A stretch of DNA of 64,000 bases from an uncultured Lachnospiraceae bacterium (GTDB lineage Bacteria; Bacillota; Clostridia; Lachnospirales; Lachnospiraceae): contig CAMVNR010000002.1 in the NCBI GenBank assembly GCA_947168905.1, positions 1,898-65,897 of the forward strand. Direction: 5' to 3'. The notes under the pieces were generated by a model, which ran no database searches, had not been told where the DNA came from, and saw nothing but the letters and a program-made list of their open reading frames with translations. The first letter of the stretch is position 1. Each line of letters begins with the position of its first letter. This document shows, piece by piece, positions 1 through 59,350 of this stretch. The translations under genes and the position numbers were made by a program.

Positions 1-1995
1 TTCCTTAATGGGATTTCGAAGGTTCTTCCGGAAAGAAGCTATCCGGGCGAATTCGGCGCACGGGTATTCAAGGTTTCCTATGACGACTCGGGGAACAGGC
101 TTCTGCATATGAAAATCACCGGGGGAAGGCTCAGCGTAAGAGACAGCATCGAGGGCCTCTCCAGGGATGAAAAGATTTCGCAGATCCGTATCTACACCGG
201 GGAACGCTATGTGCCGGCGGAGTCCGTGTCCGCCGGGGATCTGTGCGTCGTTACGGGCCTGAAAAGTGTGGAAAACGGTGCGGGCCTCGGAATCGAGAAG
301 GGAAGCCGGGAGCCGGTTTTAAACCCGGTGATGCGCTATACGATTGTGCTTCCCGAGGGCGTGGATCCGATGCAGGTCATGCCGGATTTTATCAGGCTCT
401 CGGAGGAGGATCCGGCGCTTCAGATCACCTGGGATCCGAAGCTTGCCGAAATTCAGGCGGGGCTCATGGGCGAGGTGCAGGCGGAAATTCTGAAAAGCCT
501 GATTCTAAGCCGCTTTGGGCTGCGCGTCGAGATTGTCAACGGACATGTGCTTTACAGGGAAACCGTTGAAAATACTGTGGAAGGCATCGGACACTATGAA
601 CCCCTCAGGCACTATGCGGAGGTGCACCTGAAGATTGAACCGCTGCCGCGCGGCTCCGGAATCGTGCTAAGAAGCGCTCTATCGACGGACAGCCTTGATA
701 AAAACTACCAGAACCTCGTGCTGCAGCACCTCGTGGAGAAGGAACACCTCGGCGTCCTTACGGGAAGCCCGCTGACCGATGTCCGGATCACCCTGACGGC
801 CGGAAGGGCACATTTGAAGCATACGGAGGGCGGTGATTTCAGGGAAGCGACTTACCGCGCTCTGAGAATGGGCCTGATGCGCGCAAAAAGCTGCCTTTTA
901 GAGCCCTGGTATCGTTTCCGGTTAGAAATACCGCAGACGGCCTTAAGCCGCGCTATGACCGATATTAAGCGCTTTAAAGGCACCTTCCTGCCGCCGGTCT
1001 ATTCCGAAGACCGGGTGCTCCTGTCGGGACGCGCACCGGTTTCGGAGATGAATTCGTACCAGCAGGAGGTTTTGGGGTACTCCGGAGGTACGGGTCACCT
1101 GTCGCTCGACTTTGACGGCTACGACCGCTGCCACAACGCGGAAGCGGTGATCGAAAGGATCCACTATGATCCGGAGGCGGATCTTGACAATTCGCCGGAT
1201 TCGGTATTCTGCGCGCACGGCGGGGGGTTCTTAGTCAAATGGCAGGACATACCGAAGTACATGCATCTTCCCGCGACGGTAGAGGAAGAGGTTTATATGC
1301 GGGGCATAAGCGAAGCGTCCGCAAAGACGAATACTCCTTCAATAGACCGGGGCGGGAGCGGCAGAACCCTCGCCTCCGACCGGGAGCTGGAGGAAATCAT
1401 GCTGCGGGAATTCGGGCCGATCCGAAGAGCGGAGTACGGAAAGAGCCGTACGGTTCTGAAGGCTTCGGGGCAGGAAGAGCAGACGGACCCGAAAAAGACT
1501 GTGCTTCTCATTGACGGCTACAATGTCATTTTCGCCTGGGAAGAGCTTCGGGAGCTCGCAGAGACCGACATCCAGGCGGCAAGAGAGGCGCTCATTGCAA
1601 TCGTGACAGACTACAGCGCTTTCAGGGCGATGGAAACGGTGCTGGTTTTCGACGGATACCGTGTATGGCAGAATCCGGGGGAGACCGTGATCCGCCCCTA
1701 TGTGACGATTGTTTACACAAAAGAGCGCGAGAGCGCGGACCTTTATATCGAGCAGCTTCTTATGAAGCTCCCGAAGGGAAGGAAAGGCGAGATTGTGACT
1801 TCCGACGGCATGATTCAGCTGGCAGGATTACGGTACGGCGCCCTCCGGGTGTCCTCGGGAGAGTTCAGGGAACGCGTGCAGGAAGCAAAGTTCGAAATCG
1901 GTGAGATTCTGATGCGCGCGAGGGAAAAGAGCCGGTCGACGATCGGAGAGATCCTTGCGGATGTGGAAGTGAAAGAGAAAGAACAGGAGCAGTAG
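1..1995 (+). CDS. Translation-factor GTPase family protein (TetM/EF-G-like domains II-V), 5' end off-window, fused to a C-terminal YacP/Rae1-like NYN ribonuclease domain
   Basis: Frame 1 is open from base 1 (FLNGISKVLPERSYPGEFGARVFKVSYDDSGNRLLHMKITGG...), so the ORF-track start at 109 is internal. The N-terminal ~400 aa resemble TetM/EF-G domains II-V (FKVSYD..., EDPALQITWD, EPLRHYAEV, LEPWYRFRLEIP). The C-terminal ~150 aa match the YacP pattern (LLIDGYNVIFAW...VLVFDGY...TIVYTKERESADLYIE...EIVTSDGMIQ). Confidence 0.8.
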   Translation, partial: FLNGISKVLPERSYPGEFGARVFKVSYDDSGNRLLHMKITGGRLSVRDSIEGLSRDEKISQIRIYTGERYVPAESVSAGDLCVVTGLKSVENGAGLGIEKGSREPVLNPVMRYTIVLPEGVDPMQVMPDFIRLSEEDPALQITWDPKLAEIQAGLMGEVQAEILKSLILSRFGLRVEIVNGHVLYRETVENTVEGIGHYEPLRHYAEVHLKIEPLPRGSGIVLRSALSTDSLDKNYQNLVLQHLVEKEHLGVLTGSPLTDVRITLTAGRAHLKHTEGGDFREATYRALRMGLMRAKSCLLEPWYRFRLEIPQTALSRAMTDIKRFKGTFLPPVYSEDRVLLSGRAPVSEMNSYQQEVLGYSGGTGHLSLDFDGYDRCHNAEAVIERIHYDPEADLDNSPDSVFCAHGGGFLVKWQDIPKYMHLPATVEEEVYMRGISEASAKTNTPSIDRGGSGRTLASDRELEEIMLREFGPIRRAEYGKSRTVLKASGQEEQTDPKKTVLLIDGYNVIFAWEELRELAETDIQAAREALIAIVTDYSAFRAMETVLVFDGYRVWQNPGETVIRPYVTIVYTKERESADLYIEQLLMKLPKGRKGEIVTSDGMIQLAGLRYGALRVSSGEFRERVQEAKFEIGEILMRAREKSRSTIGEILADVEVKEKEQEQ

Positions 1996-1998
1996 AAT

Positions 1999-3648
1999 AT
2001 GCTTAGAGACGGAAAAATCTGGATAGCACAGAGCTTTGACGGCAGGGACATTTTCCTGGAGCCGAAGATGGCCAACCGCCACGGACTGATCGCCGGCGCG
2101 ACCGGCACCGGCAAGACGATTACCTTAAAGGTGCTCGCGGAAAGCTTCAGCCAGATGGGCGTGCCCGTGTTCCTCGCGGACGTGAAGGGCGATCTCGCGG
2201 GGATGTGCGTGCCCGGCGAAGACTCGGAAAATATGAGAAAGAGGATCGAAAAATTCGGCCTTTCGGAGCACGGGTTTCATTATCACGGCTTCCCTTCGGT
2301 TTACTGGGACATTTACGGAAAGCGCGGAATCCAGCTGAGAACGACGGTGTCCGAAATGGGCCCGCTGCTCCTTTCCCGTATTCTGAACCTGAACGAGCTG
2401 CAGAGCTCGATCCTGACGATTGCTTTCAGAATCGCGGACGACAACGGCCTGATCCTGACGGATACGAAGGATCTGAAGGCGCTTCTGAACTTCATCGAAG
2501 AGAACCGGGAGGAGCTGGAGCCCGGGTACGGGAAGCTCGCTCCGGTATCGATCGGCGCGATTATGCGCGCCGTCGTGACGCTTGAAATTGACGGCGGAGA
2601 TATTTTCTTCGGAGAGCCGGCGCTTCAGATCTCGGACTGGTTCACGACGGATGACCAGGGACTCGGAACGATTCATATTCTGGATTCGTCGACCCTGATC
2701 AACAACGGCCGTCTGTATTCCACTTTCCTTCTGTGGTTTTTGTCGGAGCTTTTCGAGACCCTGCCGGAAATCGGAGACCCGGAAATGCCGAAGATGGTCT
2801 TCTTCTTTGACGAGGCGCATCTTCTGTTTAACGGGATTCCGGACGCGCTTCTTGAGAAGCTGACCCAGGTGGTGCGGCTCATCCGAAGCAAGGGCATCGG
2901 CGTCTATTTCATTACACAGAATCCGAGGGATATCCCGGACGTGGTGCTTGCCCAGCTGCAGAACAAGATCCAGCACGCCCTGCACGCCTATACGCCGGCG
3001 GAGCAGAAGGCGGTGAAGGCCGCAGCCCAGTCTTTCCGCGAAAATCCGGACTTTTCCACCTTTGACGCGATCCAGGAGCTCGGCACCGGACAGGCGGTCG
3101 TCTCCTTCCCCGATGAAAGGGGAATCCCCTCCGTCGCGGAAACGGCGAATATCCTGCCGCCCGAAAGCCTGATGGGCACGATTGACGACGCGAAGAGGGA
3201 GCAGGAAATCAGCGCCTCTTCCCTGTGCGGAAAATACCGGGAGGCGACAGACGGCTTCTCGGCTTATGAATTCCTGATGCGCCGCGGGGCGGAGGATGCT
3301 GCGGGGGCCTGTATGGAAGACACGGAGGAAGAAGACGAGGCTTCAGAGGCACAGGAGGAGCGCGATGCCTACGGCAATTATACCTTCGCCGGATCCAAGT
3401 ATGCGGATAAGGTGAAGAGCCCAAAGGGAAGCGAGAAAGCTTCCGGAAAAGCTTCCTCTTCAGGCAGAAAGAAGCAGACCGCGGCTGAGAAAGCCGCGAA
3501 GGCAACCGGCAAATCCATGGCCGGATCTCTCGGAAGGGAAGTCGGCAAGGCAGCAGGCTCCGTACTCGGCAGGACCGGGAAAAGAATCGGAGGAAATTTC
3601 GGAGCAGCGCTCGGCAGAGGTCTGTTCAGCACCCTGTTTTCAAAATAA
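1999..3648 (+). CDS. HerA-like / DUF853 (YjgR-type) P-loop NTPase with Gly/Lys/Ala-rich C-terminal tail
   Basis: Walker A GATGTGKT and Walker B-like MVFFFDEAHLLF. Overall length and layout fit the DUF853 family. The ATG lies 4 nt after the upstream stop, preceded by AGGAG. Confidence 0.8.
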   Translation: MLRDGKIWIAQSFDGRDIFLEPKMANRHGLIAGATGTGKTITLKVLAESFSQMGVPVFLADVKGDLAGMCVPGEDSENMRKRIEKFGLSEHGFHYHGFPSVYWDIYGKRGIQLRTTVSEMGPLLLSRILNLNELQSSILTIAFRIADDNGLILTDTKDLKALLNFIEENREELEPGYGKLAPVSIGAIMRAVVTLEIDGGDIFFGEPALQISDWFTTDDQGLGTIHILDSSTLINNGRLYSTFLLWFLSELFETLPEIGDPEMPKMVFFFDEAHLLFNGIPDALLEKLTQVVRLIRSKGIGVYFITQNPRDIPDVVLAQLQNKIQHALHAYTPAEQKAVKAAAQSFRENPDFSTFDAIQELGTGQAVVSFPDERGIPSVAETANILPPESLMGTIDDAKREQEISASSLCGKYREATDGFSAYEFLMRRGAEDAAGACMEDTEEEDEASEAQEERDAYGNYTFAGSKYADKVKSPKGSEKASGKASSSGRKKQTAAEKAAKATGKSMAGSLGREVGKAAGSVLGRTGKRIGGNFGAALGRGLFSTLFSK

Positions 3649-3669: not shown

Positions 3670-4551
3670 ATGATCACTATTGAATCACCCCGCCTCCGCG
3701 TCGAGATCGCGGAGCCGAATAAGGAGGAGAATACCTGCAGATTTGACCGTGCAGGATACATTACCCAGGTGACGCTGGACGGAAAATATGAATTCTGCAC
3801 TGCGGAATACGGCGGAACGAACGGCAAAGGCCTGTGCAGCGAGATTAAATTCGACCCGCTGTCCGAAAAGGTGCCGGTGGGCGGAAAATTCTTAAAGCCC
3901 GGCGTCGGAATCCTGACAAAGGTTGACGAACACCCCTACATCTTCATGCGCAGCTATCCTGTCATCCCCTTCCCGATCAGCGTGGAGGACCGCGGCTATC
4001 AGGCGGTGTTCAGGACGACGCCGATCGAGATCGAGGGCTATGCAATCCGTCAGAAAAAGACGGTGACCGTGTATGAGAACCGTCTTCGTATGGACTATGA
4101 ATATGAAAATGTCGGGCATCTGTCCGTGGACTTTACGGAATATGTCCACAATTTCGTCTCGCTGAACCACCGGCCGGTCGACCAGAGCTATGTGCTTCGG
4201 ATGCCTGCGATGAATTTGCCGGAGGGGGACTGCGCCATGCCCCGCAGGAAGGAGGCCGGCCCGTCCGGTGTCTACTGCGACAAAGAGGGCTTAAAGACCC
4301 GCGCGGCGGACTTCTATGACAGCATGATCATGTTCGACCCGTCCTGTGTCAACCATGATGTGAAGCCTTTTGAATGGACGATTGCCTCCTCCAGGGATGC
4401 TCTCTCGATCCGCGAGAAGGACTTTTTCGATCCCTCCCACATGTATGTCTGGACGGTCGGCGAGATTCTCTCCCCGGAGGTCTTCGCCCATGTCACAATG
4501 GACCCGGGCGAAGTCGCCGTCTATCACAGGGAGTGGGAATTCAATGACTGA
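3670..4551 (+). CDS. Hypothetical protein (possibly beta-sandwich, mutarotase-like; not confidently assigned)
   Basis: 293-aa ORF with a GGAGG-like RBS upstream and codon usage like its neighbours. No diagnostic motif recognised. Confidence 0.55.
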   Translation: MITIESPRLRVEIAEPNKEENTCRFDRAGYITQVTLDGKYEFCTAEYGGTNGKGLCSEIKFDPLSEKVPVGGKFLKPGVGILTKVDEHPYIFMRSYPVIPFPISVEDRGYQAVFRTTPIEIEGYAIRQKKTVTVYENRLRMDYEYENVGHLSVDFTEYVHNFVSLNHRPVDQSYVLRMPAMNLPEGDCAMPRRKEAGPSGVYCDKEGLKTRAADFYDSMIMFDPSCVNHDVKPFEWTIASSRDALSIREKDFFDPSHMYVWTVGEILSPEVFAHVTMDPGEVAVYHREWEFND

Positions 4552-4615: not shown

Positions 4616-7600
4616 TTATTTCCAGGATTCTATGGCGAAGGACGAATCCTTTTCAAGGCGGATGCTGTCTGTCTCGGCAGTAATCGTCCGCTTCTCCCCG
4701 GGCATCATGATAAGGTAGTTGTCGCTCCAGAATACCGGCAGGACATCCGCACCGTCCGGTGAAAGGAGACGGATGCGTACGCCGATCGAAGGCGCTTCGT
4801 TGTTCGAGATTTCAAGCGTGATGCGGGTTTTTATGCGGCCGTCTTTCGGATCCGTGAATTCTGTCCTGCCGGTTTCCAGAAGACAAAGGTCACTCGGGGG
4901 AAGCAGACAGAGCGCGCGGTAATCCTGGTAATCCTTTCGGTTGTACCAGTAGGTATTCTGCCCGAGAAGCCTGCCTTCTTCGTCCGTCATGGTGAGACGC
5001 AGGAAGACAAGATCCGTGTCGGATGCCGAAAAATCCGCATTTCCGACCACAAGTCCGTACGCGTCTGCAGGAAGCTCAGAAATCCGGTGCTCTTTATGAT
5101 CAAGCGGCTGTCCGTACAGATTGAAGAGATCCTCGGAAACGAGGACTTTTTCATAGGCCTTCGGCGAAGCGTTTGCCGCGAGAATCCGACATTTTCCCGG
5201 ATCAAAGAAGGCGCGGGTCGGCTGATTGCCGGCCTTTGTCCCGAAATAGCCGCCGTTGGTGTACAGGTAATAATCGTAGGTCTGCCACATAAATGACGGC
5301 CAGGAGGACTGGCTCATCCACATCAGAAGACCGTTCGAAAGTCGGGAAGAAAGCGCCTCAAACATCCCGCGGTGATGCTCATAGTTAATGAGCTGGGAAG
5401 CCTTGAAGAAGTCCCGGACATCCCAGGCCTTTGCGGCCTCTTCGCACATCTTCGCAATGTCTTCCTTATACTGCCTGAAGACCGGGTCCGAATCCTTCGG
5501 CGCCTGGCCCTGCACATGATCCTCCGGAACCGTAAACTCGCCGCCGAGAATGTTTTTCACGGCTTCCATATAGGTGTTCGCGGGCCCGTTCATATGATAG
5601 GTCCAGTCGTGAAGCGCCCAGGTTTCGCTGATCGGCCAGAGATGCTCCGGGCGAACGAACTTCAGGGCGGACTCGTACTCGGGGACGTTCGGTATTCCGC
5701 GCTCCGAACGGAGGACGGAAGAGGTAACGTCGTTATAGTACTGCCGGACACCGCCTGTTTCGCCGGGACGCGCGAGCTGGTATCCGCCGCCGGAGCCAAC
5801 TGGCGCCGCTGCGGAGTGCGGGAAATAGATCCTTGTGCCGTCAAGCACTGCTGTCAGCTTCAGAAGTCCTTCGTGAATATCTTCCCGGGGATTTCCCTCG
5901 TTCCGTCCGCAGTAGAAGACGAGCGAAGGATGGGAGCGCACCCGCCGGATTTTGTCCGCGGCGTTACAAAGGAACATTTCCGGGTCATCCGGTTCCGGTC
6001 CGTCGACCGGGTTTGCGAGCCAGAAGTCGTCCCAGATCAGGATTCCATAGCGGTCGCAGGCGTCGTAAAGCGCCGGGTGGTTCGTCATGCCGACCCAGTT
6101 CCGGATCATGGTCATATTGGCTTCGGCGTGCAGCCGGACCTTATTGAACAGGACCTCTCTCGTGTCACGCTTCAGGCCGTCGTCGAGACCCCAGTTTCCG
6201 CCCTTCGCGACAATCCGGACGCCGTTGCAGTAGAGGGTGAGAAGTCCGCCCTCAATCGGGGTGTCGAAGCGGCGGACGCCGAAATCAAAGGTTTTCCGGT
6301 CGCTTATGCAGCCGCTTTCTTCCAGCCGGACCTCACAGGTGTAGAGCGGCTGATCGCCGTAGGTATTCGGCCACCAGAGCTTCGGCTCTGAAAGCACAAG
6401 GGGCAGGCAGATGTCAAGCGTACTGTTTCCGGGGATGGCAAAGTCTTCGGAGAATTCCGGACCGTCCGGAAGGATTTTTCCGCACAGACGGACGGATTTC
6501 TCCTCCCCGCCAAGGTTCTTCAGTGCCGCCAGGAAGCTAAGCTCCGCCCTGGAGGTATCGAGTGTATAGCTGTGCTTTGTCGCCTGCTCGACCTCCTCGG
6601 GGGTTTCAGCATAGACACGGATTTTCCGGACAATCGTATCGACGGCTCTTCCGCTTAGTTCGCGCTGCTTTTCTACGGTAAAGCGTAGGAAGCGCGCTTC
6701 CGCAGGCTGTACGACAGGACGGTTTTCAATTCCGCGTCCGAAACGCTTCAGATCGAGGGCAACGATTGCCGTCGCGCCGGGACAGGTGTCGGAAATCGAA
6801 TGGCCGGGAAGGAGCCTGGTCCCGGGATTTTCAGGTGCATCCAGAAGACCGAAGAAGCGGACCGGAACCTTTCCGCCGGGGTAAGCGTCTAAGGGACGCC
6901 AGTTCACACCGTCTTCCGAAGTTTCCAGCCGGAAGCATTCCGGGTGGCGCGATTCGAAATCCGCCGCAGCGCCGCCGGCCTCGGTGCCCCACACGAGCGT
7001 AACCGCGCCGATGGGAACGGGCTTCCCGAAGTCCGCGGTAAAGCTGTCGCCGTCTTTACCGACCCATTCTTCGAAAGCTTCTCCGGGACAGACTGCTTTT
7101 TGATGGCTGACAGAGGTGCCTTTTCGAAGCATCAGGTCTTCTGTCGGGATCGCCGTCGACTCTTTAAGAAGCGGAAGATCCGTCTTCATCCAGGGGTCCA
7201 TGAGGAGCACGCCGCCCGAGGCCGTGACGGAGACATCGCCAAGGATGCCGATATTGCGTCCGCGGATGGTCGGAAGCCAGTCCCAGCCGACCGCCGCATG
7301 GCAGGTCGGGTTGTCCGCGCCGAGCTTCCCGCCGTTCGGACCGGGGCCGAAAGCAAGTCCCTGCGTTGTGACTTCTCCGGGAGTGTCATTCTTCAGAATC
7401 CGGACCGCGAGGAAGTTCTCTTCTCCGAAATGAACGAACGATGTCACATCGAATTTCGCGCGGACAAAAGCGCCTTCGATCGAATGAGCGCGGCCGGGCG
7501 CAGCGTTTTTCAGAAAGACGCCGTTAAAGAAGATATCGGCCTTCCAGTTGATTTCTTCAAAATTCAGGAAAATGTGCTGTCCTTTAGCGGTGTCCGGGAT

Positions 7601-8275
7601 CACAAAATGATTCCGGTACCAGAAGTCCGCGGTGAAGAATTCCTCCGAAACCTGGAACTGGTCGTCGTCGTAGAAGGGATCGGGAATGGCGCCGGCTTCA
7701 AGATAGGAATTCAGCACGGTGCCCGGAACGACGGCAGGCAGCCATCCGCTGTCGTCGTAACCTGCCTGCGAGAGCGTTTCGCCGCCGTGAGAGATCTCCG
7801 ATGCGCGTTCGACGCGCCAGTTTCCGCCGGTAAGAAGCTGCGTTCCGTTTTCGCCCGGCGAAGGAAGCTTCGGGAGAGCATACACAAGATCGTTTTCACC
7901 GAAGACCGAGACCTGGAAGATTTCATAGCAGTCGCCGGAGCATTCCCTAAGAAGCAGCTTAACATACCGCCCGGAACCGTGGAAGACAGACTCGGAGCTG
8001 CCGTTTTTGACACCTGAACCTGAGGCAGCTTCTATGAAATCGCTTCCGCTGTCCGACAGCTGAATGATGAATTCCCGCGAAAAAGCTTCGCCCCAGCGGA
8101 TGGATAACGAAGATATTTCCGAGACAGCGCCAAGATCAATGAGAAGCCATTCTTCCCGGTTTCCTTTGCTTTTCCAGGGAATATTCACCGGATTTGTGAC
8201 GAGATGGCCCGTGTTCGCGTAATTACACGCGCTCGAGTGCAGCACGGAGCGGTTCCTTGCGAGATCTCTTGTCAT
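4616..8275 (-). CDS. Glycoside hydrolase family 2 protein with N-terminal F5/8 type C (discoidin) domain
   Basis: 1219 aa. The N-terminus is discoidin-like (WKSKGNREEWLLIDLG...IRWGEAF). The GH2 sugar-binding and TIM-barrel region includes NFEEINWKADIFFNG, GGNWGLDDG, MIRNWVGM and ILIWDDFW. No signal peptide seen. Confidence 0.8.
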   Translation of the reverse strand: MTRDLARNRSVLHSSACNYANTGHLVTNPVNIPWKSKGNREEWLLIDLGAVSEISSLSIRWGEAFSREFIIQLSDSGSDFIEAASGSGVKNGSSESVFHGSGRYVKLLLRECSGDCYEIFQVSVFGENDLVYALPKLPSPGENGTQLLTGGNWRVERASEISHGGETLSQAGYDDSGWLPAVVPGTVLNSYLEAGAIPDPFYDDDQFQVSEEFFTADFWYRNHFVIPDTAKGQHIFLNFEEINWKADIFFNGVFLKNAAPGRAHSIEGAFVRAKFDVTSFVHFGEENFLAVRILKNDTPGEVTTQGLAFGPGPNGGKLGADNPTCHAAVGWDWLPTIRGRNIGILGDVSVTASGGVLLMDPWMKTDLPLLKESTAIPTEDLMLRKGTSVSHQKAVCPGEAFEEWVGKDGDSFTADFGKPVPIGAVTLVWGTEAGGAAADFESRHPECFRLETSEDGVNWRPLDAYPGGKVPVRFFGLLDAPENPGTRLLPGHSISDTCPGATAIVALDLKRFGRGIENRPVVQPAEARFLRFTVEKQRELSGRAVDTIVRKIRVYAETPEEVEQATKHSYTLDTSRAELSFLAALKNLGGEEKSVRLCGKILPDGPEFSEDFAIPGNSTLDICLPLVLSEPKLWWPNTYGDQPLYTCEVRLEESGCISDRKTFDFGVRRFDTPIEGGLLTLYCNGVRIVAKGGNWGLDDGLKRDTREVLFNKVRLHAEANMTMIRNWVGMTNHPALYDACDRYGILIWDDFWLANPVDGPEPDDPEMFLCNAADKIRRVRSHPSLVFYCGRNEGNPREDIHEGLLKLTAVLDGTRIYFPHSAAAPVGSGGGYQLARPGETGGVRQYYNDVTSSVLRSERGIPNVPEYESALKFVRPEHLWPISETWALHDWTYHMNGPANTYMEAVKNILGGEFTVPEDHVQGQAPKDSDPVFRQYKEDIAKMCEEAAKAWDVRDFFKASQLINYEHHRGMFEALSSRLSNGLLMWMSQSSWPSFMWQTYDYYLYTNGGYFGTKAGNQPTRAFFDPGKCRILAANASPKAYEKVLVSEDLFNLYGQPLDHKEHRISELPADAYGLVVGNADFSASDTDLVFLRLTMTDEEGRLLGQNTYWYNRKDYQDYRALCLLPPSDLCLLETGRTEFTDPKDGRIKTRITLEISNNEAPSIGVRIRLLSPDGADVLPVFWSDNYLIMMPGEKRTITAETDSIRLEKDSSFAIESWK

Positions 8276-54397: not shown

Positions 54398-57300
54398 ATG
54401 AAGAAGTACACAGCAGTGTGGTGCCTGGTGGCAGCCCTACTTTTTTCGGCAGTATCCTGCAGGAAGTCTGCCGGGACCCCGGATCTCCGGGCGCCGGAGA
54501 GTGCTGCCGGCATAAATAGCACTGTGAGCGAAGAGGCGGAAGCGTCATTTCCGGCTCCGGACGAAGAGAATCTTACAGCCGAAGACGATCCTGAGGACGA
54601 AGACGACCTTACGGACGGCCGTCCGGAAGAGCCTGAAACCTCCCCGGCGGGAGAAGACAGCGAATTTTCGCGCGCACTGGCGAAAAAGAATCAGGAATAC
54701 CGGGAAGAGGATACAAATCTTACCGGGATACGGATTGAACCCTGTGCGAAAAAGGTCTGGACCGTCATGGTTTACATGATCGGCTCGAACCTGGAGAGCT
54801 CTCTGGGCGCCGCAAGCAGTGATCTTTCCGAGATGACAGAGGCGGGAATCAACTTTGAAAGGAGCAACCTCGTCGTCTATACGGGCGGCAGCGCGCGCTG
54901 GCAGTCGGATATTCCCTGTGACCGGAACAGCGTCCTGGACCTTTCCAAAGAAGGGAAGGACCGGATGGTGGCGTCGACGGAAAAGAACGCCGATATGGGC
55001 GCAAAGGAGACGCTCGCGGGCTTTGTGAATTTCTGCAGTGAATACTACCCTGCAGAGCACACCGCACTCATTCTGTGGGACCATGGCGGCGGCCCTTTGT
55101 GGGGCTACGGGTCGGACGAGTTATTCTCCGGCGACGGACTGCTTCTTTCGGAGATGGAGCTTGCGATGAACGCGACGGAGTATTCCGGGCTTCGCAGCCT
55201 CGACTTTGTCGGCTTTGATGCCTGTCTGATGGGCTGTCTCGAAAATATGATGCTCTGGTCTCAGTTTGCGGATTACATGGTCGCATCCGAAGAGCTGGAG
55301 CCCGGCGACGGCTGGGACTACGGGTTTTTGAAGCTTCTGAACGAAAGCGATGACCCTGTCACGGTCACCTCCGGGATTGTCAGCTGCTTCCGGGACTATT
55401 ATGCCGCGAAAAAAACCGATTATTACAACCCCGACCTGACGCTTTCGGTCTGTGATCTTTCCCGCGTCCAGCCACTGGTGCATGCCGTGTCGGATACGGC
55501 CCTTCAGATGTCGGAAATGCTCGGAAGAGGCGCTTACCAGACGCTCGCCCAGGTCCGCATGGACGCCCGAAGCTTCGGCCGGACTCAGGGCTCAGGGGAA
55601 GAAGGAGCGGGCGATGACTACGATCTCGTGGATATCGGAAGCCTGTTTACGTATCTTGCCGAAGAAACCGGAGAGCCTGCCGGCGAAAGTCCGGTCCTGA
55701 AGGCGCTTTCAGAGCTTGTCATCTGCAGCTATTCCAATATGGATCAGGCAAACGGTGTCAGTCTGTACTATCCCCAGCGGAACCGCCGGCAGTATTACGA
55801 TATGCGTGAAGTATATGAGGCTCTGTGGAGAAATACGGCATACAGGAATTACCTGAGGGCTGTCGGAAATGTCTGGCAGAGCGCCGAAAGAAAGGACTGG
55901 AGCATCCTGCCGGATGCGTCCGGAGAAGAGGAATATACGATTCTTCTTACCGATGAGCAGCAGGAGGAAATGATCTCGGCGCATTACAGCGTCCTTCTAT
56001 CGGAGCACCCCGGCCAGTACCGGCCGATCCTTCTGGACTGTGAAATCCGTCCGGACAAGGAGGGCATCCTGCATCTTTCAAAGGACCCTTCGCTGATGGC
56101 GCTTCACTCCGGGACCGATGTGGAACTCTGGCCGGCGGCCCAGTCGGAAAGCACAAAAAAGCGGCGCATTTATCAGACGAAGAACACCACCCTCTGTGCG
56201 AGCGGAGTGTATTTCTACAGCCGGTACAATGTCGACCGCGATTATGTGACCGTTGTCCTGCAGGAGGACGTAAAAACGGAAGACCTCAGCATCCAGACGG
56301 TCAACAGCTTTTCGGGGGATTACACCGTCGACGGACGGGAGAATATCAATGTCGAGAGCTATGACGCGATCTGCTATGAATATTCCGAACTCATTCCGAC
56401 CTACGGCCCGGACGGCGGACTTCTTGGCGTCTCTTCCTGGAAAACCGGAGATTATACGGGAAAGATCAGCCTGAACCTCCTGGAATCCTTCGGATTTGAA
56501 AAGATACACAGCTCGGATTTCTCCGGAAAGCTGTATTATGTTGTCAGTATCACCGATGTCAACGGCAGTGAATATCTGACGGAGCCCTTCCCGATCGAAC
56601 CGATGCGAAAGTATGAGATCGTACGCGAAGAAACACCGGAAGGACTTTTCACAGCGGCAGTGTACCCGGATCACGCCGAACTGCTTTCCTACGAAGGAAC
56701 GGACCCGGAACTGGAGATCCCGGAAACTTTTGGCGGCGCGCCGCTCACGGTGATCGGCCCGAAAGCCTTCTTCAAGCGCATCAGCATGGATTATGTCGGC
56801 GCCGGCGAGCACTACCCGCTGAAGAAAGTGACGATTCCGGATACCGTGACCCAAATCGCGCACGCTGCCTTCTATATGTGCGCCGATCTTGAGGAAGCGG
56901 TCCTTCCGAAGAATCTTGAGACGATCGGCACCCAGGCCTTTGCCGTGTGCCTGAAACTTCCGGAAATCCGGCTGCCGGAAAGCCTGGAATCGATCGGCCC
57001 CTATGCTTTCTCGGACTGCTGGGAGCTTCGGCACATCGACCTTCCAAAGAGCGTGAAGATGATCGGAAAGGGCGCCTTTGCCTGCTGCTATGCTCTGAAT
57101 GAAATTACGCTTCCTGCGGAAAACGAAGCGTACACGGTCTGTGAAGACGGTCTCTATACCAAAGACCTGAGAACGATACTGGCCTTTCCCGCCGCGAAAA
57201 CAGGGAACTGTACGGTAAGAGAAGAGACGGAAGAAATCGGTGCGGACTGCTTTTCCGGGACGAATCTTAGCGAAGTCATTCTTCCGGAGGGGCTGAAGAA

Positions 57301-59350
57301 GATCGGAAATTATGCGTTTTATGAAAGTGTGCATCTGAAGATGCCGCTGCTTCCCGAGAGCCTTCTCGAAGTCGGCTACAATGCTTTCAGCCGTGAAATG
57401 ATGGAATTTACGGAAGAGTTTGTTCATGATAAGACGCAGGAGATCCGTATCGGGAAAAATCTGACCACCATCCGCCGCGGCGCCTTTGTCGGAATGATTC
57501 CGCGTGTTTTCTCGGTAGACCCCGAGAACCCTCATTTCACCGAAAAAGACGGCGCCCTGCTTCTTAAAAGCGGCGATTCGCTGCAGGAATTCGCGGTAGA
57601 GAAAATGCGCCTCCTCGAGGTCCCGGACGGCGTAAAAGACCTGGATACGACCATTCTTACCCAGATCGGACAGTACGATGTCTGGGTTGACAAAACGACC
57701 ACCGATGTATATCTTCCGGACAGCCTGATCCGCATTTCGGGGGTGCTTCTGTACCGGGACAGCCTGGTTTTCCACTGCAGCGAGGGCTCCACAGCGGCGC
57801 GTTTTGCGGCGGAATACGGACTTCAGAAGAGCAGCGATACCGAACCGGTCCTCGAGACGGCGGAAGTGCCGACCGAGGCAGGAAGTCTTCAGTTCTCTCT
57901 GACAGAAAGCCACGCCGTCCTGACAATGATCCTAGGGACGGACGAGGAAATCACGGTTCCAGAAGAAGTGGCGGGAAAACCGGTAACCATCATCGGCTCC
58001 GGCGAATACAGCCTCTACGGAAAGTGGGGATATTTCGATGCGGAAGGAAGGGACCTTGAGCGGAAGATCATTCTCCCGGACACGGTTGAGGTGATCGGGG
58101 ACAGGGCATTTTCGGATGTGAAGCTTTCTGAAATCAATCTGCCGGACACTGTCCGGGTCATCGGGGAAAACGCTTTCGGACTCATCCGAAAACCCCTCAC
58201 TGCGCTCCCCAAAAACCTGGAGCATCTCGGCAAGGAAGCTTTCCGGAGAGGAACCTTCGATGCGGGCAGAGAACTGGTCCTTCCGGAATCCTTAAAAGAG
58301 ATTGCCCCGGGCGCATTTTCCGGCATCCGTACAGATGCATTCAGCCTGGAAAGCGGGGCTTCCGAAGATTTCCGGATTCTTGACGGAATGCTGGTTACGG
58401 CAGACGGGAAAACGATTCTTGCGGGCGTGAGTCCGGAAAAGCTCCTTACGATTCCGGAGGGGATTGAAAAAATCGGTCCGTATGCCTTTGCGAACCAGAA
58501 TTTTACCGAACTGGTTCTTCCGGAAACGCTGCGGATCATTGAGGAATACGCATTTTCGGGCAATTTTTACCTGGAACAGGTGCACTTTGCCGAAGGCCTT
58601 CAGGAGGTCGGAGCAGGTAATTTCACTTCTGGAATTCTGGAGGAAGTCCGCCTGCCGAGAAGCTGCGAAAGCATCGGTGAAAATGCATTTTCTTCCCAGA
58701 GCAAGCTGGTTTCTGTCAGTCTGAATGCGAAAGTCATCGGGAAGAAGGCCTTCTCTTCCTGCAAAAGCCTTCGGGAAGTCGATTTCGGTGAAGAACTGCA
58801 GGATATTTCAGATGACGCCTTTCTGGACAGTGCGCCTGAGACCTTTACGCTTCCTAAGAGCCTGCGCCAGATCGGCAAAAACGTATTCGGAACGCTGTAC
58901 GGCGAACCCGGTGAGGATTCCGGAAAGGATCGTAAGGCACGGATACTTCGTATTCCGGAAAACGTGCGGGAGATCGGGGAGAACTGCTTCTCGGCGCTTG
59001 AAATCAGCGGATACGAGGCAGCAGAGGAAAGCGAAAGCTTTTCATCGCCGGAGGGCCTTCTCACGGATAAAGCAGAACGGGTGCTTCTTTCCTGCCCGAC
59101 CGGAATCGGCGGGCTGATCACGCTTCCGGAATCCGTCTTTGAGATCCGGAGTACCGCCTTTGCCTGGTGCCACAATCTGTCGGGCATCGTGATTCCGGAT
59201 ACGGTGGAAGTCATCCGCCCCTTTGCATTTTCGGATCAGAAGTATTCCGTACAGGGAGAGAAAATCCTGCTTTACTGCAGGAAAGACAGTCCGGCCGCCC
59301 TGTGGGCTGCGGAAAATGACTGGCCATGGGACGAAAGACAAGAACAGTGA
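54398..59350 (+). CDS. Lipoprotein: clostripain-like C11 cysteine peptidase domain fused to a long array of BspA-type leucine-rich repeats
   Basis: Lipobox LLFSAVSC. C11 hallmarks WTVMVYMIGSNLES, ILWDHGGG (His) and VGFDACLMG (Cys). Over 1000 aa of repeats of the form IPxxVxxIGxxAFxxCxxLxxI. Confidence 0.85.
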   Translation: MKKYTAVWCLVAALLFSAVSCRKSAGTPDLRAPESAAGINSTVSEEAEASFPAPDEENLTAEDDPEDEDDLTDGRPEEPETSPAGEDSEFSRALAKKNQEYREEDTNLTGIRIEPCAKKVWTVMVYMIGSNLESSLGAASSDLSEMTEAGINFERSNLVVYTGGSARWQSDIPCDRNSVLDLSKEGKDRMVASTEKNADMGAKETLAGFVNFCSEYYPAEHTALILWDHGGGPLWGYGSDELFSGDGLLLSEMELAMNATEYSGLRSLDFVGFDACLMGCLENMMLWSQFADYMVASEELEPGDGWDYGFLKLLNESDDPVTVTSGIVSCFRDYYAAKKTDYYNPDLTLSVCDLSRVQPLVHAVSDTALQMSEMLGRGAYQTLAQVRMDARSFGRTQGSGEEGAGDDYDLVDIGSLFTYLAEETGEPAGESPVLKALSELVICSYSNMDQANGVSLYYPQRNRRQYYDMREVYEALWRNTAYRNYLRAVGNVWQSAERKDWSILPDASGEEEYTILLTDEQQEEMISAHYSVLLSEHPGQYRPILLDCEIRPDKEGILHLSKDPSLMALHSGTDVELWPAAQSESTKKRRIYQTKNTTLCASGVYFYSRYNVDRDYVTVVLQEDVKTEDLSIQTVNSFSGDYTVDGRENINVESYDAICYEYSELIPTYGPDGGLLGVSSWKTGDYTGKISLNLLESFGFEKIHSSDFSGKLYYVVSITDVNGSEYLTEPFPIEPMRKYEIVREETPEGLFTAAVYPDHAELLSYEGTDPELEIPETFGGAPLTVIGPKAFFKRISMDYVGAGEHYPLKKVTIPDTVTQIAHAAFYMCADLEEAVLPKNLETIGTQAFAVCLKLPEIRLPESLESIGPYAFSDCWELRHIDLPKSVKMIGKGAFACCYALNEITLPAENEAYTVCEDGLYTKDLRTILAFPAAKTGNCTVREETEEIGADCFSGTNLSEVILPEGLKKIGNYAFYESVHLKMPLLPESLLEVGYNAFSREMMEFTEEFVHDKTQEIRIGKNLTTIRRGAFVGMIPRVFSVDPENPHFTEKDGALLLKSGDSLQEFAVEKMRLLEVPDGVKDLDTTILTQIGQYDVWVDKTTTDVYLPDSLIRISGVLLYRDSLVFHCSEGSTAARFAAEYGLQKSSDTEPVLETAEVPTEAGSLQFSLTESHAVLTMILGTDEEITVPEEVAGKPVTIIGSGEYSLYGKWGYFDAEGRDLERKIILPDTVEVIGDRAFSDVKLSEINLPDTVRVIGENAFGLIRKPLTALPKNLEHLGKEAFRRGTFDAGRELVLPESLKEIAPGAFSGIRTDAFSLESGASEDFRILDGMLVTADGKTILAGVSPEKLLTIPEGIEKIGPYAFANQNFTELVLPETLRIIEEYAFSGNFYLEQVHFAEGLQEVGAGNFTSGILEEVRLPRSCESIGENAFSSQSKLVSVSLNAKVIGKKAFSSCKSLREVDFGEELQDISDDAFLDSAPETFTLPKSLRQIGKNVFGTLYGEPGEDSGKDRKARILRIPENVREIGENCFSALEISGYEAAEESESFSSPEGLLTDKAERVLLSCPTGIGGLITLPESVFEIRSTAFAWCHNLSGIVIPDTVEVIRPFAFSDQKYSVQGEKILLYCRKDSPAALWAAENDWPWDERQEQ

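Follow-up and report, generated by a model that had tools for sequence, protein, structure and literature searches.

The window, that is, the whole 64-kb stretch of DNA analyzed here, begins inside a gene on the + strand. Frame 1 of this strand is unbroken from base 1 to the stop codon at 1993–1995 and comprises 664 visible codons, while stops are found throughout the remaining two + strand frames at 1–1995. The G-domain part (first ~212 codons) would lie upstream of the window, as judged from the full-length counterpart P0001 (876 aa), which is 99% identical to the window protein and contains an intact G domain with the motifs AHVDAGKT, RGITI, DTPGH and TKMD. In the following, residue numbers (aa) refer to the visible window protein unless P0001 numbering is stated, and A1 and A2 denote alignments of 25 close and 20 distant family members, respectively. 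The features of the gene are:

1–1995, + strand: fusion gene, 3′ 76% (664 codons plus stop), open frame with the 5′ end lost at the window edge
52–279, + strand: EF-G-type domain II (PF22042, EF-G_D2, aa 18–93)
325–534, + strand: EF-G-type domain III (PF14492, EFG_III, aa 109–178; weak match, confident in the AF2 model, Foldseek top matches EF-G)
541–888, + strand: EF-G-type domain IV, the A-site-reaching domain (PF03764, EFG_IV, aa 181–296, E 1.9e-19)
589–627, + strand: family-specific loop of domain IV, GHYEPLRHYAEVH, almost invariant in A1 and A2
802–861, + strand: family-specific loop of domain IV, GRAHLKHTEGGDFREATYRA, almost invariant in A1 and A2
895–1140, + strand: EF-G-type domain V (PF00679, EFG_C, aa 299–380, E 1.2e-16)
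1129–1269, + strand: motif 1 of the C-terminal extension, CHN...PDSVFCAHGGGFLVKWQDIPKYMHL, without Pfam or PDB match and with no confident fold alone
1270–1383, + strand: variable low-complexity spacer, differing in length by tens of residues among relatives (A1 columns ~700–750)
1384–1419, + strand: motif 2, ELEEIMLREFGP, a short helix preceding the NYN domain (E674, L675, E676, E682, F683 and G684 invariant in A1; P0001 numbering)
1504–1977, + strand: Rae1/YacP-type NYN endoribonuclease domain with C-terminal helix (PF05991)
1513–1515, 1651–1653, 1738–1740 and 1804–1806, + strand: predicted catalytic Asp codons D505, D551, D580 and D602 (from the Rae1 alignment)

One polypeptide unites the G domain (seen in P0001), EF-G domains II–V and a C-terminal PF05991 domain. 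The original prediction, made from the sequence of the window, had joined EF-G/TetM-like domains II–V to a YacP-type NYN domain in one frame and placed the G domain off-window; both statements hold, the Pfam matches following in order along the single open frame 1–1995 and the full gene being visible through P0001. Short database “proteins” that span only the tether and the NYN domain could suggest that an assembly or frameshift artefact has united two separate genes, but several of the short entries inspected begin at internal Met codons (“MHLES...” inside YMHLES) and are fragment-like. Furthermore, in 80 of the 80 genome loci fetched, the NYN domain is part of one ORF with a length of at least 600 aa, so that the orthologous loci do not carry the two separate genes that the original prediction had asked about. 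The architecture is identical in all of the best 120 homologues, with ORFs of 840–960 aa both there and in the 80 loci, and the tether itself is conserved. An artefact is thus already refuted, and the fusion is real.

The GTPase Part and Its Relation to EF-G and Tet Proteins

The G1 motif AHVDAGKT, the switch I motif RGIT, the G3 motif DTPGH with the catalytic His and the G4 motif (N/T)KxD are invariant across the 25 close and 20 distant members, and the first ~680 residues of the full-length protein adopt an EF-G fold (AF2 model; Foldseek E 1e-49). With EF-G the protein shares, besides the fold, the stretch “EPLPRGSG” in domain IV, and its H483 (P0001 numbering) aligns to the tip His of EF-G (T. 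thermophilus H573); at least 90% of the close members keep this His, though not the family at large. It differs from EF-G by the extra tether and nuclease and scores under the EF-G cut-offs (TIGR00484, 243–296 bits vs 659; NF009381, 307–336 bits vs 583). The two domain IV loops align to LYYSPVSTPADFR of TetM and GSYHEVDSSEMAF of EF-G, and where loop I of EF-G reads GGxGQ(Y/F)GH, the fusion has GH(Y/F)EPLRHY (GHYEPLRHYAEV in the window protein).

The best sequence matches are TetO (258 bits) and TetM (252 bits), above EF-G (212 bits), and the fusion resembles these Tet proteins in the five domains of an EF-G-like GTPase, in its intact G motifs and in the layout of its G domain. Moreover, tet_protect (NF012153) is the best NCBIfam model, several members are named “TetM/TetW/TetO/TetS family...” by NCBI, and the fusion proteins were placed in the Tet subfamily (Atkinson 2015; PMC4342817). 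That the protein protects the ribosome from tetracycline, with the RNase as an addition, was suggested by Atkinson (2015) and follows from many NCBI annotations, but is very unlikely. Three members reach only 410, 407 and 397 bits with tet_protect against a cut-off of 775, and the specific Tet models give 225–309 bits against cut-offs of 900–1425. In TetM, Pro509 is placed on C1054 within the drug site (PMC8161019); in the alignment, the fusion replaces TetM Tyr506, Tyr507, Ser508 and Pro509 by Ala, His, Leu and Lys, and so is without the loop III residues that dislodge tetracycline. Instead, the family has its own invariant domain IV loops. It is also ~290 aa longer than TetM and TetO, it has a core-chromosomal, non-mobile context across hundreds of species where it is not carried on mobile elements, and a nuclease has no obvious use in drug displacement. 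Given the low tet_protect score, the replacement of Pro509 and Tyr506/507 and the housekeeping context, the fusion is, as judged from its residues, not a true tetracycline protection protein. The label “tetracycline resistance ribosomal protection protein” carried by many members is unsupported here and could inflate resistome counts of gut metagenomes.

The NYN Domain and Its Tether

The NYN_YacP match covers aa 502–659 (PF05991; E 7e-36, 124.1 bits vs a gathering score of 24.6), so that the domain had been recognized correctly, with a small shift relative to the residues ~470–600 first assigned to it, and its Pfam significance, raised as a check at that time, is clear. The acidic motifs read from the sequence are all present (IDGYN, aa 504–508; VFDGY, 549–553; ESADLYIE, 577–584; VTSDG, 599–603). 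In a phmmer comparison with Rae1 of B. subtilis (5MQ8; E 1.5e-15), Rae1 D7, D53, D81 and D104 are matched by identical residues, and their equivalents are invariant in the 45 family members of A1 and A2, in contrast to the loss of acidic residues that had been considered possible. The AF2 model of the domain has a pLDDT >90 and finds its best Foldseek match in Rae1 (5MQ9; TM 0.78–0.80, rmsd 2.5 Å). By these residues the nuclease active site is intact. The NYN fold (TM 0.8), a C-terminal helix and the catalytic Asp residues are common to the fusion domain and Rae1, whereas Rae1 is a free protein of ~170 aa encoded in an mrnC-rlmB-yacP operon; the NYN domain of the fusion is tethered covalently to a five-domain GTPase without such neighbours, and thus departs from the stand-alone ~170 aa form in the mrnC-rlmB-yacP neighbourhood. 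The activity expected of this nuclease group is translation-dependent cleavage of mRNA upstream of stalled ribosomes.

Between domain V and the NYN domain lies a conserved extension of about 120 residues. In motif 1, C589, Y601, D606, S613, F615, C616, G619 and V624 (P0001 numbering) are invariant in A1 and A2, but its pLDDT is <50 in both AF2 runs (full-length; C-terminal 301 residues), and residues ~609–710 (P0001 numbering) are of low confidence in both. The helix of motif 2 is predicted with moderate to low confidence as residues 97–108 of the 301-residue model (block-mean pLDDT ~57–69), while the equivalent helix 672–683 of the full-length model has a pLDDT <50. For motif 1, a sequence search of the PDB gave no match beyond domain V. 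Few parts of the protein are as well conserved as the domain IV loops and the two tether motifs (A1, A2), although the tether does not fold alone in the AF2 models, which is the profile expected of a segment that becomes ordered on a partner. Since the tether has no confident model, where the NYN domain would sit on the ribosome can only be guessed from geometry.

Distribution and Genomic Context

The architecture is not new. “TetM-like + NYN_YacP” proteins of Clostridia were noted in two surveys (Atkinson 2015, BMC Genomics, Additional file 8, PMC4342817; Matelska et al. 2017, NAR, PMC5499597), with members in E. rectale ATCC 33656, R. albus 7, A. thermocellum ATCC 27405 and D. hafniense. The published fusions share the architecture, the taxa and the motifs of the window protein (GH(Y/F)EPLRHYAEVH, GRAHxKHTEGGDFR, SVFC...YMH and DGYN...TSD) and show no essential difference from it, so that the latter is a further member of a known, uncharacterised family. 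Literature searches for a characterised NYN protein with TetM, EF-G or a translational GTPase returned the two survey mentions only; the original prediction, which knew of no characterised member, is borne out in this respect, though it had missed the surveys.

In a census of a genome collection, at least 598 genomes at the species level, from Oscillospiraceae, Lachnospiraceae and their relatives, carry the fusion. Hosts of the family include Faecalibacterium, Blautia, Dorea, Coprococcus, E. rectale and A. thermocellum. The nearest named relatives of the window protein are Lachnospiraceae; apart from P0001 (99%), the nearest full-length relatives are 74–76% identical to it, and more distant members roughly 40–55%. 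The distribution is wide and looks vertical. Among the candidates for split or NYN-only relatives, most of the short matches inspected in a search of representatives begin at a Met codon inside the fusion or at a spurious start, and these were taken as fragments.

The context is that of a housekeeping, core-chromosomal and non-mobile gene in hundreds of species. Across the related loci examined there were no conserved operon partners, and no defence or mobile-element signal was seen. A HerA_C ATPase gene downstream is common only to the closest relative, L001. An anti-phage defence reading was discarded, the fusion having no PADLOC match. No regulatory RNA was found by Rfam upstream of the gene in nine related loci, and the window has no Rfam match either. 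Neither the 64-kb window nor 87 loci, which span small parts of the respective genomes, contain neighbours of the mrnC-rlmB-yacP type or a second NYN_YacP gene; a stand-alone yacP, if kept in genomes with the fusion, would weaken the simple reading of the fusion as a tethered Rae1.

These neighbourhoods bear on a role in ribosome biogenesis or rRNA maturation, in which the GTPase would “test-drive” a near-mature subunit or 70S ribosome and the NYN domain would shorten one end of a precursor rRNA. Such a role has an analogue in eukaryotes, where eIF5B promotes cleavage of the 18S precursor by Nob1 (PIN), and would be in line with the implication of BipA and LepA, further GTPases of the EF-G family, in the assembly of subunits. 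The domain arrangement and the intact active sites would suit rRNA trimming as well as mRNA cleavage, and YacP was first predicted to act in rRNA/tRNA processing, with an mrnC-yacO(rlmB)-yacP operon in Bacilli (PMC5499597, PMC4342817). By contrast, the substrates of Rae1 established by experiment are mRNAs on translating ribosomes, and in none of 80+ loci does the fusion gene adjoin genes for rRNA processing or modification. We consider a biogenesis role unlikely.

Putative Role on the Ribosome

The gene product is best explained as a translational GTPase of the EF-G/Tet branch to which a Rae1-type NYN endoribonuclease is attached through a long, conserved tether. Whether it serves as a GTP-gated nuclease at the ribosomal factor-binding site, cutting the mRNA of stalled or collided ribosomes outside the A site, is in our estimate an even bet, in which we infer ribosome docking, the mRNA as substrate, the position of the cut and the link to tmRNA. 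In the first step, the GTP-bound fusion would dock at the factor-binding site of the ribosome, so that the family-specific domain IV could probe the decoding center of a blocked ribosome, being either a collided ribosome in the rotated state or a stalled one with a free A site. The C-terminal extension may then anchor close to the 30S subunit, allowing the tethered NYN domain to cleave the mRNA outside the A site, most plausibly on the mRNA entry side, between two collided ribosomes. The truncated mRNA would become a substrate for trans-translation, and the factor would be released by GTP hydrolysis. Overall, the Rae1 collision pathway would here be built into one protein and gated by GTP.

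In ribosome complexes of EF-G and TetM, domain IV itself fills the 30S A site. Since the NYN domain follows ~120 residues past domain V, the established structures imply that it could not share the A site with domain IV. The original prediction had proposed a GTPase-controlled delivery of the nuclease to the A site, of which the GTPase-coupled delivery to the ribosome is plausible, but not the destination, which domain IV would already occupy. Likewise, the view underlying the prediction, that Rae1 is a nuclease of the A site, has since been withdrawn by its original proponents, and Rae1 is now seen to act on collided ribosomes, feeding trans-translation (PMC13622287).

Regarding the state of the ribosome, the rotated/hybrid state is the one favoured by EF-G-type factors, and Tet proteins bind to non-rotated ribosomes with an empty A site. 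The highest overall similarity being to Tet proteins counts against fixing the rotated state as the one recognized. In favour of the model, native disomes of B. subtilis have their collided ribosome in the rotated/hybrid state (PMC10897456). The missing conservation of the EF-G tip-His (H573) equivalent across the wider family speaks against the model.

The C-terminus of Tet-type factors emerges beside h44 and the decoding center, as seen in the cryo-EM of TetM on the ribosome, so that a nuclease attached there could reach the rRNA. Conceivably, the fusion is a factor for ribosome inactivation or turnover, the GTPase part of which settles on ribosomes that are idle or damaged, with the nuclease cleaving rRNA or tRNA close to the decoding center, in the service of growth arrest, ribosome degradation or stress adaptation; such a function might also accommodate the conserved Cys/His-containing extension. 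We regard this as quite unlikely, since a nuclease that attacks rRNA, if constitutively encoded with its active site intact, would need tight control, of which there was no sign, the loci having neither an antitoxin-like or regulator partner nor a match in defence libraries, and since the precedent of Rae1 favours mRNA.

Cleavage of mRNA by a nuclease that is recruited to stalled or collided ribosomes has functional analogues in SmrB of E. coli and Cue2/NONU-1 of eukaryotes, the SMR fold of which is unrelated to NYN, and Pelota-Hbs1 is analogous, again in function only, in that its GTPase brings a probe into the A site. To our knowledge, none of these systems unites GTPase and nuclease in one polypeptide. 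More tentatively, and in our view with the odds against it, the fusion may be the main or only Rae1-type collision nuclease of Oscillospirales and Lachnospirales, i.e., a single-polypeptide, GTP-gated “no-go decay” factor, in which the EF-G-like module senses a collided ribosome that is rotated and blocked in translocation, and the NYN domain cuts the inter-ribosome mRNA. If so, the fusion would become the first nuclease-bearing translational GTPase of known mechanism, would cover dominant human gut species among these orders, and would offer a stable handle on the missing structure of ribosome-bound Rae1. Indeed, Rae1 binds to the ribosome only transiently, for which reason no ribosome-bound structure exists (PMC13622287), whereas the fusion could be trapped by non-hydrolysable GTP for cryo-EM. 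How Rae1 helps to rescue collided ribosomes is under active study. Its natural, covalent linkage to a GTPase of the factor site informs where a Rae1-type nuclease can be delivered, and hundreds of clostridial species have the family, including the genetically tractable A. thermocellum.

The fusion gene and its domains

The fusion of an EF-G/TetM-like GTPase with a Rae1/YacP-type NYN nuclease, as claimed by the original prediction, is confirmed by a single open frame and by Pfam matches. Frame 1 of the forward strand is open from base 1 to the stop codon at 1993-1995 (664 visible residues), and the other two forward frames are interrupted by stops throughout window 1-1995.

Domains of the fusion (Pfam; residues of the visible part, + strand)
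aa 18-93: EF-G domain II
aa 109-178: EF-G domain III
aa 181-296: EF-G domain IV (E 1.9e-19)
aa 299-380: EF-G domain V (E 1.2e-16)
~120 residues between domain V and NYN_YacP: no Pfam assignment
aa 502-659: NYN_YacP (E 7e-36; 124 bits vs a gathering score of 24.6)

The four NYN motifs noticed earlier were found at aa 504-508, 549-553, 577-584 and 599-603, and the domain had been recognised correctly, but it sits slightly downstream of the range first assigned to it. The homologue P0001, a metagenomic protein of 876 aa with 99% identity to the fusion across the entire visible part, carries in its first 212 residues a G domain of the canonical translational type (AHVDAGKT, RGITI, DTPGH, TKMD).

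Distribution of the fusion

When one genome was scanned for each species, at least 598 confirmed relatives came up, and in all 80 loci fetched (the best 80 of these) the NYN domain is part of one ORF that spans 600 aa or more, which rules out two separate genes; an assembly artefact joining two genes is thereby refuted. PF05991 is present in 120/120 best homologues (50-99% identity; 821-904 aa, except for a 644-aa fragment), and the G domain (PF00009) in all except that fragment. The fusion is a real, well-conserved gene. With the tether and NYN domain together as query, a full HMMER search gave 198 clusters (50% identity) at E ≤ 1e-30. Among the short matches inspected, several start at an internal Met of the fusion ('MHLES...' in YMHLES; the Met of 'EMNSY'), others have seemingly spurious starts, and these were taken to be fragments of the fusion. 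Many database 'proteins' of 200-300 aa are likewise pieces called from an internal Met (P0128, P0228, P0265, P0138 and similar entries), one of them named 'predicted RNA-binding protein with PIN domain', and such fragments could pass wrongly for stand-alone NYN proteins.

Relatives among the matches listed belong to Oscillospiraceae/Ruminococcaceae, Lachnospiraceae (Blautia, Dorea, Coprococcus, Anaerobutyricum), Faecalibacterium, Intestinimonas and Flavonifractor, and published members reach Acetivibrio thermocellum and Desulfitobacterium (PMC4342817). The sole non-Clostridia label among the 80 loci is that of L044, a member on an 89-kb contig (CAZRKN010000011.1) labelled 'uncultured Bacteroides sp.', which probably reflects an error of binning or labelling and not a transfer. 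The architecture has already been published (Atkinson 2015, PMC4342817; Matelska et al., PMC5499597), so that the observation itself is not novel; the family has been noted before but never characterised, and no characterised member was found in the literature.

Relationship to Tet proteins and EF-G

By overall sequence the closest solved proteins are TetO (258 bits) and TetM (252 bits), with EF-G behind at 212 bits. Every curated NCBIfam model misses its cut-off widely, tet_protect scoring 397-410 bits against 775 and the EF-G models 243-336 bits against 583-659. Pro509 of TetM, which lies within the tetracycline site on C1054 (PMC8161019), corresponds to Lys in the fusion, and Tyr506/Tyr507 of TetM correspond to Ala/His. 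With T. thermophilus EF-G the fusion has 'EPLPRGSG' in common, and His573 of EF-G aligns with H483, a residue that is not conserved across the wider family; the EF-G loop GGRGQYGH, by contrast, is replaced. Since the NCBIfam cut-offs are missed and both the TetM drug-site residues and the EF-G loop are replaced, the sequence places the GTPase module as a separate lineage inside the EF-G/Tet branch.

The NCBI name of the homologues P0002, P0014, P0041 and P0074 is 'TetM/TetW/TetO/TetS family tetracycline resistance ribosomal protection protein'. Such Tet-named members reach about half of the curated score threshold, and the drug-site residues are missing from them; the 'tetracycline resistance' names on several members are not supported and are a likely over-annotation, which could make the resistome of gut metagenomes look larger than it is. 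That the fusion is a tetracycline protection protein with an added RNase is highly improbable, being contradicted by loop residues, scores and genomic context.

Conservation and predicted structure

Conservation was assessed in alignments of 25 closer members (A1) and of 20 distant representatives with 39-49% identity (A2). In both, all G motifs are retained, including the catalytic His of DTPGH, and the domain IV loops GH(Y/F)EPLRHYAEVH and GRAHxKHTEGGDFR are almost invariant. Invariant in both are also the NYN residues D717-G-Y-N720, D763, D792 and D814 (P0001 numbering), and phmmer pairs the NYN Asp residues with D7, D53, D81 and D104 of Rae1. The extension beyond domain V conserves C589, Y601, D606, S613, F615, C616, G619 and V624 in A1 and A2, within the pattern '...CHN...PDSVFCAHGxGFxVxW..V..YMH', and is followed by a variable spacer and a predicted helix of the form 'ELExIMxREFGP'. 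The parts of the fusion and their conservation are directly observed.

AF2 modelled domains I-V and the NYN domain confidently. Foldseek places the N-terminal ~680 residues with EF-G structures (E about 1e-49), and the NYN model compares with Rae1 (5MQ9) at a TM of 0.78-0.80 and an rmsd of 2.5 Å. For residues ~609-710 the pLDDT stayed below 50 whether the full-length protein or just its C-terminal 301 residues were modelled. The strong conservation of a tether that stays unfolded by itself suggests that it becomes ordered when bound to a partner. The extension at window 1129-1269 (P0001 residues 589-634) contains the invariant Cys C589 and C616 and the well-conserved His H590, H618 and H634, and may be a metal-binding mini-module; it was left unfolded by AF2 and had no match in the PDB.

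Proposed mechanism

Domain IV of EF-G and of Tet proteins fills the 30S A site in their ribosome complexes, and EF-G-type factors prefer the rotated state of the ribosome. With domain IV in the A site and the NYN domain ~120 residues past domain V, the nuclease would therefore have to act elsewhere. GTPase-controlled delivery to the A site had been proposed on the premise that Rae1 works there, which is outdated. It has been suggested that collisions are sensed (PMC12407103). A 2026 preprint shows that tmRNA tagging on collided ribosomes depends on Rae1, and attributes the lack of a Rae1 structure on the ribosome to transient binding (PMC13622287). Native B. subtilis disomes pair a non-rotated stalled ribosome with a rotated/hybrid collided one (PMC10897456).

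In the best-supported model, to which we give roughly even odds, the fusion is a GTP-gated NYN nuclease that cuts mRNA on a ribosome unable to proceed, and for it we infer docking, substrate and cut site as follows. The GTP form would dock at the factor site of a ribosome that cannot advance, domain IV would contact the decoding region together with the conserved extension, and the tethered NYN domain would cleave the mRNA at the entry side, i.e. the inter-ribosome stretch where Rae1 cuts. The cut would yield a tmRNA substrate, and the factor would be let go upon GTP hydrolysis. A role in rRNA maturation or a 'test-drive' is favoured by what was originally predicted for YacP and by its operon in Bacillus, but is unlikely in light of what Rae1 is known to cleave and of the absence of neighbours of that kind from the fusion loci; ribosome inactivation or turnover via rRNA or tRNA cleavage appears less probable still. 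The fusion is of moderate interest, both for its direct bearing on the way in which Rae1-type nucleases are delivered to ribosomes and because its common resistance annotation seems to be wrong.

Genomic context

The gene content of the window is that of an ordinary chromosomal region (BirA-like ligase, MatE, H+-pyrophosphatase, pyruvate kinase, predicted GH2 enzymes), with no tRNA and no Rfam match.

Genes accompanying the fusion in the window
1999-3648, +: HerA_C/DUF853-type ATPase gene (PF05872, E 4e-191), starting 3 nt past the fusion stop
4616-8275, -: putative GH2-family glycosidase, 1219 aa
8354-9379, -: BirA-like HTH/biotin ligase gene
54398-59350, +: Peptidase_C11 (clostripain-family protease) with BspA-type leucine-rich repeats, 1650 aa, five matched PF13306 stretches

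The HerA_C ATPase gene is probably co-transcribed with the fusion, since its AGGAG ribosome-binding site falls inside the last codons of the fusion gene. Its product has a C-terminal tail rich in Lys/Gly/Ala/Ser and weak PADLOC matches (mad8, HerA). This adjacency is common only to the window and its closest relative, the Lachnospiraceae-like contig L001, and other members adjoin unrelated metabolic genes. Clustering of flanking ORFs across the 80 loci gave no recurrent neighbour, PADLOC had no match for the fusion, and no regulatory RNA was found upstream of it in nine loci. Such surroundings are typical of a housekeeping gene that stands alone, rather than of a mobile module for resistance or defence.

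L001 also carries a BirA-like gene and a GH2 glycosidase of 1258 aa for which the Pfam record lists F5/8 type C domains, and the order of its BirA/GH2 region matches that of the window, which is therefore syntenic with L001. At another relative's locus (L006), a T-box leader (4171-4416, - strand; 99.8 bits) lies ahead of an HTH/cupin/AMP-binding fusion gene on the opposite strand and has no relation to the GTPase-NYN gene. The 1650-aa Peptidase_C11/PF13306 protein of the window is probably a large protease that is secreted or sits on the cell surface.
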